The position numbers and the translations under genes were made by a program. The notes below the pieces were generated by a model, which was not told where the DNA came from, did not search any database, and saw nothing but the letters and a program-made list of their open reading frames with translations. Positions 17,635 through 22,922 of a DNA stretch of 64,000 nucleotides are shown one piece after another. Each line of letters starts with the position of its first letter. Position 1 is the first letter of the stretch. This DNA comes from Solirubrobacteraceae bacterium (GTDB lineage: Bacteria; Actinomycetota; Thermoleophilia; Solirubrobacterales; Solirubrobacteraceae). The DNA lies in contig DASYFR010000038.1 in assembly GCA_036498325.1 (NCBI GenBank), positions 17,679 to 81,678 on the forward strand, written 5' to 3'.

Positions 17635-19299
17635 ATGACCGCGAACCTGTTCGACTATTTCGAGGAACTCGCCATCGAGAGCGGCACGCCGGCTCGATGG
17701 GCCGCGCGGGCGCCGCGCCGCCCCCAGCGCGACTACGACATCAAGCTCATCCCGCGCGCCGCCGACTGGCGCGGTGACGCCGATTCTGTGGCGGCCCTGC
17801 AGCGGATCGAGCGCGAGCCATGGGCCGCGAGCGTAATCCGCGACGGCGACGCCGTCAGGCTGCGGCTCGCCGACGAGTGGGTCGAGCTCGCCGGCGCGGC
17901 GCTGGAGGCCGGGGGCAGCTGCGAGGCGGAGCTCTCCGACCTCGCGCAGGGACAGCGGCTCTCCGTGCAGTTCTGGGACGCCAACGCGACGAAGGCGCTG
18001 CACGTCGGGCATCTACGCAACCTCGCGATCGGCAACGCGCTCGCCTCGGCGCTCGCGCAGGCGGGCGCTCAGGTCGAGCGGCGCAGCCGCATCTCCGACA
18101 TGGGCCGGGCGATGGGCGAGGCGATCGCCGGGGTTGTGCAGAGCGGCCGCGCCGCTCAGGGGTGGTCGCATGGCGAGGAGAAGAGCGACCACTTCGTGGG
18201 CATGTGCTACGCCGAGTACGTCGCCGCGACCGGCTCGCTCGCCGCGGGCCAGGCCGAGCAGGCCGAGGACTCGCTCTCGCGCGAGACGCTGGTGCACGGC
18301 GACGCGGCCGACGAGGTGATCAAGCGGGTGCTGCGGGGCGAGCGCGAGGCGGTCGAGCTCTGGTACAAGACACGCGCCTGGGTGATCGCCGGGCAGCGCA
18401 AGACGCTCGCGTGGCTGGGGATCGCGTTCGACCGCGTGCTGTTCGAGTCCGACTACCTCGCCGAGACGGCCGAGTTGACCGAGTTGGGCGTGCGCAGCGG
18501 GGTCCTGCGCCGCCGCGAGGACGGCGTGATCGTGTACGAGACCGGCCTGCAGGAGCTCGCGGAGCTGGCGCTGGTGCGTGCCGACGGGCTCTCTACGCAG
18601 CACATGCGCTCGCTCACCTACGCGCTGACGGGGCCCGAGCTCGACGGCATGAGCTCGCTGCAGGTGACCGGCTCGGAGTGGGTATCGCACGTGACGAGCA
18701 TCCGCAAGCTCGCAGCCGAGCTGAGGCCGGAGCTCAACGGCGGCTTTCACCCCGGCCGCAGCATCTTCCACGGGATGGTCTCCAGCCGCGAGCGTGCGGT
18801 GAGCTCCAGCGCGGGCGCGCTCCTGATCGACGAGCTCCTCGAATGGCTCGACGCGCAGATCGACGCCGATCCACAGCGACGGGAGGCGCGCCGCGGGCAT
18901 CCCCGCCCCGAACGCATCGCCGCGCAGATCGTGCTCGGCTACTTCCTGCCCCATGCGCCCGCGCCGGACATGGACTTCGACCCGGACAGGCTGCTGTGCG
19001 AGCGGGAGAGCCTGGGATGGGACCTCGTCCGCGCGCGTGCGCGCCACAGCCGCGGAACTGCCCGCGAGCAGCGGCCGGCGGAGGACCGCGACTATCGCTT
19101 CGCGGTCCTCCAGTCGGAGCTGTACAGGCGCTATCTGCGCCTGGCGGCGCAACGTCTCGACGTCAGGCCGCTCGCGCACTACCTCAAGCACCTCTCGCAG
19201 TGGTACGTCGAGCGCGAGCGCAGCGAAGCCGTCGAACGCGTCGTGCACACCCTGCTCGACCGCAGCGCCCGCGGACTCGGTCTCGAGGCCGGCTCGTGA
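17635..19299 (+). CDS. Arginyl-tRNA synthetase paralogue with altered amino-acid pocket
   Basis: ANATKALHVGHLRN HIGH motif, ISDMG, KSDHFVG, LGIAFD..FESDY, VRADG, HGMV, C-terminal DALR-like helices. Arg-binding and KMSKS residues are not conserved. Confidence 0.85.
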   Translation: MTANLFDYFEELAIESGTPARWAARAPRRPQRDYDIKLIPRAADWRGDADSVAALQRIEREPWAASVIRDGDAVRLRLADEWVELAGAALEAGGSCEAELSDLAQGQRLSVQFWDANATKALHVGHLRNLAIGNALASALAQAGAQVERRSRISDMGRAMGEAIAGVVQSGRAAQGWSHGEEKSDHFVGMCYAEYVAATGSLAAGQAEQAEDSLSRETLVHGDAADEVIKRVLRGEREAVELWYKTRAWVIAGQRKTLAWLGIAFDRVLFESDYLAETAELTELGVRSGVLRRREDGVIVYETGLQELAELALVRADGLSTQHMRSLTYALTGPELDGMSSLQVTGSEWVSHVTSIRKLAAELRPELNGGFHPGRSIFHGMVSSRERAVSSSAGALLIDELLEWLDAQIDADPQRREARRGHPRPERIAAQIVLGYFLPHAPAPDMDFDPDRLLCERESLGWDLVRARARHSRGTAREQRPAEDRDYRFAVLQSELYRRYLRLAAQRLDVRPLAHYLKHLSQWYVERERSEAVERVVHTLLDRSARGLGLEAGS

Positions 19300-22296: not shown

Positions 22297-22922
22297 GCGC
22301 TCGAGGCTCGCCCAGCGCTCCGGCGGCGAGGGCCGCCCCGACGTTCGTCACGCTGGGGCCGTCGGGGACCTGCCACGAGAACGCCGTGCTCCACTATCTC
22401 GAGTACCAGGGCATCAGCTCGTTCGAGATCGAGCTGGTGAGCGACCTGCTCGACGCAATCGGGCGGGTGCGCGAGCGTGCGAACACGTTCCTCGTGCAGT
22501 GCAGCGCCCACGTCCAGGTGCACCTCGTGACGGAGCGCTTCCACACGGAGGTGTTCGTCGTGGACACGTTCATCTACCCGACCAAGGAGCTGGGCCTGCT
22601 CGCGCGCACCGACGTCGCGGCGCCACGGAGCCTCGGCATCGTCTCCGCCACGCGCGGCTATCTCGACCTGAGCGGCTGGGAGACGATCATCGACGAGCCG
22701 TCCAAGCCGGTCGTGGCCCGCAACCTGCTTGCGGGGGCCTACGACGCCGGGCTGACGCACGTGCATCACGCCTGCGAACACCCCGACGAGCTGCGCCTGG
22801 TCGAGTACTTCGGCGCGGTCGACACGACATGGGTCGTCTACGGCCCGCGAAAGCGCTTCGCCGGCGAGCTGATCGGCCGGCGCGCACCGTGGCTGTTCAG
22901 CGGCGTCAGTCGTTCGCGGTGA
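22293..22922 (+). CDS. Prephenate dehydratase-fold protein, BacA/AerD-like decarboxylase candidate
   Basis: TLGPSGTCHENA start, AYDAGLT, TTWVVYG end; 209 aa with no ACT domain, as in BacA. Confidence 0.65.
   Translation: MSARGSPSAPAARAAPTFVTLGPSGTCHENAVLHYLEYQGISSFEIELVSDLLDAIGRVRERANTFLVQCSAHVQVHLVTERFHTEVFVVDTFIYPTKELGLLARTDVAAPRSLGIVSATRGYLDLSGWETIIDEPSKPVVARNLLAGAYDAGLTHVHHACEHPDELRLVEYFGAVDTTWVVYGPRKRFAGELIGRRAPWLFSGVSRSR

Follow-up and report, generated by a model that had tools for sequence, protein, structure and literature searches.

A putative amiclenomycin-type front end adjoining a private tRNA and an ArgRS-like synthetase in a Solirubrobacteraceae bacterium

The stretch of Solirubrobacteraceae DNA analysed here, 64,000 nucleotides in length and called the window below, carries an operon in which genes for the synthesis and rearrangement of 4-amino-4-deoxychorismate (ADC) are joined to a gene for a small unannotated protein, X, and to genes for a private tRNA and a diverged paralogue of arginyl-tRNA synthetase (ArgRS). 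The question that this locus raises is what the operon makes, and for what purpose a tRNA and a synthetase should travel with it. Judging from gene content and residue patterns, the operon is probably an amiclenomycin-type front end producing a non-aromatic amino-cyclohexadienyl amino acid, the presumed cargo of the ArgRS-like enzyme and its tRNA(UAA).

A preliminary description of this DNA had placed an ADC synthase, a mutase-like enzyme and X at 19296-22922, and these genes are real, as coordinates, coding signal and conservation agree (Table 1). The G+C content of the window is about 70%, and the third-position GC content, which reaches 0.85-0.96 in the called frames, marks a chain of genes on the plus strand that encodes the ArgRS-like enzyme, a fused PabA-PabB protein (PabAB), a GNAT N-acetyltransferase, a chorismate-mutase-like protein (CM) and X. 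All four junctions of the chain, including that between the synthetase-like gene and PabAB, are 4-base start-stop overlaps (GTGA or ATGA). The account of the locus as a three-enzyme set thus stands as far as the trio is concerned, but it left out GNAT, which lies between PabAB and CM and is integral to the cassette. With a 5-sequence alignment as the query, relatives were found in 515 species-level genomes, and the 80 best loci, all from metagenome-assembled genomes (MAGs) of Solirubrobacterales, were compared with the window. The five module genes have tblastn matches in nearly all of these 80 loci, at 44-88% identity, and the gene order is constant in all but three rearranged ones, a conservation which, on the sequences compared, is far beyond chance.

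PabAB carries a GATase domain at residues 4-187, followed by Anth_synt_I_N and Chorismate_bind domains, and its GTG start overlaps the stop of the synthetase-like gene. It passes the cut-off of the TIGR00553 pabB model (345.7 bits, cut-off 328.4), falls just under that of TIGR01823 for the fused type (428 bits, cut-off 442.6) and lies far below the cut-offs of all TrpE models, and the PIKGT lysine motif is present in its translation (RPIKGTAARS). The genome (2.84 Mb, 96% complete) has no other PabB-type gene. Of its two further chorismate-binding genes, both much weaker as paralogues, one stands beside MenD on contig C36 and is MenF-like by context, while the other, on contig C6, is taken to be TrpE. 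The conversion of chorismate to ADC by PabAB is well supported.

The next enzyme of the presumed pathway, CM, is the only AroQ of the genome, the housekeeping mutase being an AroH encoded on contig C6 beside an aromatic aminotransferase and TyrA. Its best NCBIfam match, TIGR01803 of chorismate-mutase-like proteins, scores 54 bits, below the cut-off of 73. In an alignment with E. coli PheA and TyrA, the residues R11, R28, K39 and R51 of the E. coli chorismate mutase (EcCM) are retained, and D48 is changed to Gln, E52 to Val and Q88 to Glu; all six cassette-linked CMs are alike in this respect (E52 to Val or Ile). Since E52 of the EcCM structure presumably contacts the C4 hydroxyl, its loss fits a changed C4 substituent, and CM is a probable mutase of ADC or N-acetyl-ADC.

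To this point the operon resembles PapA-PapB-PapC of chloramphenicol and pristinamycin synthesis, where a fused ADC synthase is likewise followed by an AroQ-type mutase acting on ADC. The third enzyme differs, being an NAD-dependent PapC/TyrA-type dehydrogenase in the pap pathway and the cofactor-less, PDT/BacA-like X in the window, and to our knowledge the pap pathway has no pair of GNAT and HDAC enzymes such as is described below. The absence of PapC, an aminotransferase and a ligase, stated before from the letters alone, was confirmed. Matches to PDH_N in the genome are confined to contigs C6 and C9, and the one clear TyrA is that on C6 next to AroH, with none on the contig of the window; no aminotransferase homologue was found in the 64-kb window; and the operon has no ligase gene, the nearest, of MurD type, being three genes upstream and not conserved with the module.

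X itself is matched by no curated sequence model. It has no match in Pfam at E=10, including PF00800 of prephenate dehydratases (PDTs; gathering threshold 25.2 bits), and no relevant match among PDB sequences, either by phmmer or with a 32-sequence profile; its sole NCBIfam match at E=1, to a Frankia-40 domain at 16 bits with a cut-off of 40, is spurious. Homology surfaced only through profile-profile and fold comparison. For the AlphaFold (AF2) model, which was built from a 34-sequence alignment and has a pLDDT of 89.8, the top Foldseek match in the PDB is the prephenate dehydratase 3MWB (E 2e-9), and the PDTs 6VH5, 3LUY and 2QMW come next amid generic type II periplasmic-binding proteins, the TM-scores being only about 0.5. 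As modelled, X has the two-lobe fold typical of type II periplasmic-binding proteins and consists of a single PDT-like domain with no further domain and no ACT. The earlier reading of a PDT fold without ACT is therefore borne out by the fold search, but by no curated model.

The family of X is large. It comprises 3,559 close relatives, which among the matches listed are at least 76% identical and come from Solirubrobacteraceae MAGs, and clustering at 50% gave 240 representatives with identities down to about 26%. Wherever a source names a relative, it is labelled 'hypothetical protein'. Ten of 32 diverse members give weak matches to Pfam PDT, the best at E 0.0013, but for none was a score above the threshold shown, and other members touch type II binding-protein families. 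A canonical PheA on contig C32, which matches PDT with a high score, is the only PDT found in a loose search of the genome.

The placement of X comes from its comparison with BacA. The reference set contained 18 sequences that NCBI names BacA or prephenate decarboxylase, and the BacA query was a 100% match to the NCBI 'bacilysin biosynthesis protein BacA'. In hhalign, the X family (32 sequences) aligned with the BacA family over 176 columns (99.2%, E 1.1e-19), and with 20 actinobacterial PDT domains over 124 columns (90.3%, E 1.5e-6), the corresponding values for the BacA family and the PDT domains being 149 columns, 97.9% and E 6e-13. In a maximum-likelihood tree the X family forms a clade on the BacA side with 100/99 support, within which X of the window belongs to a 16-row subclade (99/94) together with three PabAB-linked proteins, from a Streptomyces-like genome, Bradyrhizobium and genome G689. 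A joint alignment with E. coli PheA shows that the Glu-Asn of the PIENS motif (E159/N160) is deleted in both X and BacA, and that in the TRF motif (T278-R279-F280) both have lost the Arg and have Trp in place of Phe, the motif reading MSW in BacA and TTW in X. X thus has these losses (TRF to xxW) in common with BacA, and a single PDT-like domain of about 200 residues without ACT in common with the non-aromatising prephenate decarboxylases BacA, AerD and SalX of bacilysin, aeruginosin and salinosporamide synthesis. Natural fusions in the X family include CM-X (five representatives), X-aminotransferase and X-cupin, the last of which echoes the BacA-BacB pair.

The resemblance to BacA and AerD that had been suggested from the sequence is thus confirmed in that X is far closer to BacA than to the aromatising PDTs. 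It has to be qualified in one respect: the separate clade of X, and the BacA invariants that it does not share (see below), make X a sister family of BacA and not a member. BacA passes the Pfam PDT model and X does not; the presumed substrate of X is a 4-amino (or acetamido) compound and that of BacA a 4-hydroxy one; and the product of X, if amiclenomycin-like, would keep a 2,5-diene, in contrast to the conjugated 1,3-diene formed by BacA. By analogy, X is predicted to be a non-aromatising 4-amino-4-deoxyprephenate decarboxylase. Two distant actinobacterial matches (L113 and L114) were set aside as members of another PDT/BacA-like subfamily with other contexts. Homologues of X in Variovorax, which lie in amino-acid ABC-transporter operons, form a sister subclade in the tree.

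The gene contexts of more distant homologues were examined in a plasmid collection and in 401 sampled genomes of a Streptomyces-like genus, which gave three strong matches. Outside Solirubrobacterales the closer relatives of X always adjoin an ADC synthase and a CM, and in three other lineages homologues at 47-57% identity always follow PabAB, GNAT, an HDAC-family protein (PF00850) and CM. A five-gene cassette, PabAB-GNAT-HDAC-CM-X, recurs in three lineages, and the window has four of the five genes, without HDAC.

The context that bears most directly on the function of X is found in the Streptomyces-like genomes. In one of them (G615) the five cassette genes, X being 57% identical, are followed by genes for an HMGL/LeuA-like synthase, a FemAB-like protein, a fused aconitase (LeuCD-like), an Iso_dh protein (LeuB-like), a class IV aminotransferase and a class II DAHP synthase. 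LeuA/LeuCD/LeuB-type genes and a class IV aminotransferase follow X in a second genome (G612) as well, and in both the cluster is flanked by two avidin-family (streptavidin) genes, 48 kb apart in G615 and 36 kb apart in G612. The proteins of the window are 44% (PabAB), 40% (GNAT), 52% (CM) and 57% (X) identical to those of the Streptomyces-like cluster. Stravidins are prodrugs of amiclenomycin, the ring of which is a non-aromatic 4-amino-2,5-cyclohexadiene, and the stravidin (svn/sta) gene cluster of Streptomyces was reportedly described by Montaser and Kelleher in 2020. The gene order of the G615 type is the layout published for the stravidin (amiclenomycin) cluster (PMC13336041; bioRxiv 10.1101/2025.10.09.681295). 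The cluster is called stravidin-type here from its architecture only. X is the only enzyme of the stravidin-type cluster suited to remove a prephenate-type carboxylate. The window and this cluster have in common the five-gene front end, minus HDAC in the window, and their X proteins, when compared, fell in the same subclade. Only the stravidin-type cluster has HDAC, LeuA/LeuCD/LeuB-type, aminotransferase and FemAB-like genes and flanking streptavidin genes; the private tRNA and the ArgRS-like gene occur in the window only.

Two further versions of the cassette were found. Plasmid p187_1 of Bradyrhizobium sp. 187 (L085) encodes, in order, pabA, a PabB-GNAT protein, HDAC, CM, X (47% identical) and an MFS transporter; the gene annotated as pabB (L085:5656-7680) is a 675-residue PabB-GNAT fusion with no stop between the two parts. 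This is apparently a compact, mobile version of the cassette. The plasmid is of the symbiosis type, and the cassette lies there among insertion sequence elements, without a tRNA or synthetase. In genome G689 (L129, 10322-17337) the order is class IV aminotransferase, PabAB, GNAT, HDAC, CM, X and a PLP-dependent group II decarboxylase, a gene content from which an amino-cyclohexadienyl-ethylamine-type product would be predicted; we know of no description of such a product.

The GNAT protein carries an acetyl-CoA loop (RGHAIGAG), and its best NCBIfam matches, which are weak, are resistance-type amino-acid N-acetyltransferases. The Streptomyces-like and G689 cassettes contain it as well, and in the window its gene overlaps both neighbours by GTGA. 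A role of GNAT as an aminoacyl-tRNA transferase was considered and rejected, given the acetyl-CoA loop and its occurrence in cassettes that have no tRNA or synthetase. HDAC genes were found in one locus of the set between GNAT and CM (L044, 6677-7630), and in L085, L128 and L129, and a gap of about 1 kb between GNAT and CM points to such a gene in about half of the loci of the genus. The L044 protein has the His-His dyad, the Asp/His metal ligands and the EGGY tyrosine, as read by eye. In the window and in about one-third to one-half of the genus loci GNAT and CM abut and HDAC is missing, the sole HDAC homologue of the genome, on contig C8, being 31-34% identical. The sublineage of the window has lost HDAC and kept the other genes intact, and another amidohydrolase may deacetylate instead, for example an M20 enzyme encoded at 26427-27614. 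Early acetylation of the ring amine is suggested by the fusion of PabB to GNAT and by the change of E52 in CM to a hydrophobic residue. As an amide the nitrogen would be a poor leaving group, and the pyridoxal phosphate (PLP) enzymes of the producer would be protected; HDAC would then unmask the amine. Acetylated stravidins with much reduced activity, as well as N-acetyl-amiclenomycin, have been reported (PMC13336041; bioRxiv 10.1101/2025.10.09.681295).

The following pathway may be proposed. PabAB would convert chorismate and glutamine to ADC, the ring 4-amino group of which is probably acetylated by GNAT, either as protection or for self-resistance. The AroQ enzyme, to judge by its context and residue pattern, would carry out a Claisen rearrangement to 4-amino(acetamido)-4-deoxyprephenate. 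X, given its kinship with BacA and its stravidin-type homologue, would remove the ring carboxylate with the nitrogen kept, giving 3-(4-amino-cyclohexadienyl)pyruvate, and a housekeeping aromatic aminotransferase would complete 4-amino-dihydrophenylalanine ('nor-amiclenomycin', C9H14N2O2) or its N-acetyl form. The PabB-GNAT, CM-X and X-aminotransferase fusions support this order of steps. No LeuA/LeuCD/LeuB-type homologation genes were found in the module, where the five genes and the tRNA abut and the scanned flanking genes are unrelated, so that the product should naturally be one carbon shorter than amiclenomycin. Such a product had been proposed from the letters alone, and the present comparisons support that proposal well. 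The co-translated ArgRS-like enzyme would load this presumed substrate on the private tRNA(UAA). It may be speculated that the distal ammonium and the length of the product, which resemble those of Arg and Lys, would suit an enzyme derived from ArgRS.

Table 1. Positions of the module genes and of the P450 gene in the window
Feature	Coordinates	Strand	Evidence
Fused PabA-PabB ADC synthase, 719 aa	19296..21455	+	PF00117 + PF04715 + PF00425, TIGR00553
GNAT N-acetyltransferase, 170 aa	21452..21964	+	PF00583, PF13508
AroQ-class chorismate-mutase-like protein (CM), 111 aa	21961..22296	+	PF01817, 71 bits
Protein X, 209 aa, BacA-like, PDT superfamily, no ACT domain	22293..22922	+	AF2 fold, hhalign
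Private 73-nt tRNA, anticodon UAA, short variable loop	17534..17606	+	Rfam 68.8 bits, ARAGORN
Diverged ArgRS-like class I synthetase paralogue, 554 aa	17635..19299	+	PF00750, TIGR00456
Cytochrome P450, divergently transcribed	15892..17313	-	PF00067, 200 bits

Several points weigh against this pathway. The Thr of the TRF motif, which in PDTs (T278 of E. coli PheA) is thought to aid the departure of the leaving group, is retained in the PabAB-linked subclade of X, as TTW. The BacA invariants S32, S33, Y81, H129, P130/P132 and M190 (B. subtilis numbering) are not shared by X, which at those positions has C27-H28 (N-H in the family consensus), H73, [S/P]-A-T and T178; the Ser and Tyr of BacA correspond to an invariant H28 and a near-invariant H73 in X, and both the SHP motif and Met190 of BacA are absent from X, so that the regiochemistry of X could differ. 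As the window has no HDAC, the acetyl group may still be present on the end product. The module comes with no transferase for an aminoacyl-tRNA, the only Acetyltransf_6 protein of the genome being encoded elsewhere, on contig C32, and there is no match to FemAB_like in the genome. Cyclohexadienyl amines aromatise easily, and the loaded species could be aromatic.

One explanation that builds on this last point is that the dihydro intermediate is aromatised, either spontaneously or by a P450 or other oxidase, to p-aminophenylalanine or its N-acetyl form, and that this is the substrate of the synthetase. A P450 gene does adjoin the module in most of the 80 loci, upstream of the synthetase-like gene and at 48-72% identity, and ready aromatisation of 1,4-cyclohexadienyl amines is general chemistry and the basis of amiclenomycin action. 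However, the P450 is missing from several loci with a full module, the module has no PapC-type dehydrogenase in a genome with one clear TyrA, and a close homologue of X serves a pathway with a non-aromatic end product. An aromatic cargo is thus unlikely.

Another possibility concerns the tRNA and the synthetase. The private tRNA is present in 69 of the 80 related loci, and its anticodon loop, CTTAAAC, is kept in all but one, the anticodon-stem sequences differing between species. The genome also has a canonical 86-nt, long-arm tRNA-Leu(UAA) (C26:96339-96424). Among the Leu codons TTA is much the rarest, with 41 occurrences in about 644,000 codons (1,731 high-confidence open reading frames), many of them near uncertain N-termini, and no in-frame TTA was found in the module and its neighbours. 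The ArgRS-like protein matches PF00750 at 32 bits over residues 104-169 only, and TIGR00456 at 88 bits with a cut-off of 262, which argues that it is not a spare housekeeping ArgRS. Its gene is conserved with the module in the genus and is absent from the Streptomyces-like and Bradyrhizobium cassettes. It might then be supposed that the cassette makes a free, secreted antimetabolite, and that the tRNA/ArgRS-like pair serves resistance, regulation or an unrelated process that depends on tRNA. This would agree with the cassettes without synthetase or tRNA in the Streptomyces-like genomes and in Bradyrhizobium, where an MFS exporter follows, with the weak resemblance of GNAT to resistance acetyltransferases, and with the lack of a linked aminoacyl-tRNA-using transferase. 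On the other hand, the stop of the synthetase-like gene and the start of PabAB overlap by 4 bases, the tRNA, the synthetase-like gene and the cassette are adjacent in the great majority of the 80 loci, mostly in the same order, and the synthetase-like protein scores far below the ArgRS cut-off. A separate role for the pair is therefore considered improbable.

If, as preferred here, the pair acts on the product of the cassette, the arrangement resembles the pylTSBCD genes, in which a tRNA gene, a dedicated synthetase and amino-acid biosynthesis genes also share one operon. All parts are unrelated in sequence, however, the anticodon in the window reads the sense codon UUA, a canonical tRNA-Leu for UUA coexists with the private tRNA, and the role in translation is putative. 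Ribosomal insertion of an amiclenomycin-like amino acid at UUA, as a sense-codon analogue of pyrrolysine, or an aminoacyl-tRNA feeding the modification of a peptide or of the cell envelope, is doubtful enough that we offer it only as a speculative extension. Nothing relevant was found in the literature on a dedicated tRNA or ArgRS paralogue coupled to an ADC pathway. The stravidin-type cluster of G615 contains a FemAB_like/Acetyltransf_6 protein (L128:8537-9781); as FemAB-family members often use aminoacyl-tRNA, a peptide bond of stravidin might be tRNA-dependent, which would parallel the tRNA-linked module of the window.

Within the GTDB genus of the window, X was found in 97 of 150 sampled species and in 47 of 59 good-quality genomes (about 80%, the genome of the window counted), and it was absent from all eight genomes from other genera of the family and all seven from the rest of the order. 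Frameshifts or in-frame stops interrupt the gene in four genomes (G403, G490, G516 and G526). The module can be dispensed with, and some lineages are losing it. PabAB, too, is missing from five good genomes of the genus that have no X, their best matches, at 36-40% identity, being TrpE-like with an adjacent, TrpG-like GATase; the module thus appears to be gained or lost as a unit and not to be the folate route of the genus.

These data also bear on two explanations that need only brief mention. X might be an aromatising, PDT-like enzyme, releasing CO2 and NH3 from 4-amino-4-deoxyprephenate to give phenylpyruvate, or CM and X might form a second branch from chorismate to Phe, as the best PDB match of the fold, the weak Pfam PDT matches of 10 of 32 family members and the retained Thr of TRF could suggest; but X, like BacA, has lost the Glu-Asn of PIENS and the Arg of TRF, its family profile aligns with that of PDT weakly and over part of the length, a canonical, high-scoring PDT is encoded elsewhere in the genome, X is co-inherited with PabAB across phyla, and making ADC only to discard its nitrogen would be futile, so that this function is very improbable. 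Least probable of all is that the module is a branch of folate synthesis with CM as a PchB-like pyruvate lyase or another route to p-aminobenzoate, since, although the genome has Pterin_bind (PF00809, FolP family) genes but no PabB-type gene besides PabAB, a single class IV aminotransferase-family gene and no obvious separate PabC, the five genomes of the genus without X have no PabAB orthologue either, the stravidin-type cluster uses this cassette to make an antibiotic, and X, GNAT and the tRNA pair would have no role. The Pterin_bind (FolP-like) genes are at C8:86355-87116 and C33:46342-47064, and the only Aminotran_4 match is at C36:53110-53808, the genome having no separate class IV enzyme of PabC size.

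The enzyme logic of the proposed front end is a variant of known systems, those of BacA and of the stravidin cluster. New here are the X family as such, the portability of the cassette, the shorter amino acid that is predicted and the coupling to a private tRNA and synthetase. A function is proposed for an unannotated family of about 240 clusters at 50% identity, as the amino-prephenate counterpart of BacA, and the five-gene cassette may be regarded as a portable source of 4-amino-cyclohexadienyl building blocks. Their warhead is of the type of amiclenomycin, which is a mechanism-based inactivator of a PLP enzyme. The proposal predicts an undescribed amino acid, nor-amiclenomycin, so that the expected cargo of the tRNA would be a basic, reactive cyclohexadienyl amine of about the size of Arg or Lys, and not an aromatic aniline. 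Such a cargo would ease the understanding of a descent from ArgRS and names a compound for charging assays. Only if the doubtful insertion at UUA also took place would a large uncultured soil genus of Solirubrobacteraceae naturally expand its genetic code with a cationic, non-aromatic amino acid, charged by a re-purposed ArgRS paralogue onto a private tRNA(UAA) of class I shape.

Some neighbouring genes deserve mention. A trio on the plus strand (24270-27614), encoding a DUF6885 protein (260 bits), a glutamine synthetase paralogue similar to gamma-glutamyl-amine synthetases and the M20 amidohydrolase, sits beyond a convergent acyl-CoA dehydrogenase gene, an arrangement that recurs in the closest relative (L003) only. 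These enzymes could gamma-glutamylate or deacylate an amine, perhaps replacing the lost HDAC. Upstream of the module, on the minus strand (13123-15865), a MurD-type ligase (TIGR01087 310 bits, above the cut-off) is preceded by a 473-residue PP-loop protein similar to MurL, the UDP-MurNAc-L-Ala-L-Glu epimerase (NF041275, 417 bits, below the equivalog cut-off of 700). The ligase (13123-14496) was considered as the ligase missing from the operon and rejected, as it pairs with the MurL-like epimerase and is not conserved with the module. From their sequences, the two proteins suggest an alternative route to the D-Glu of peptidoglycan, in which L-Glu is added and then epimerised. In one of the related loci (L079) a MurL-like gene is found directly after X.

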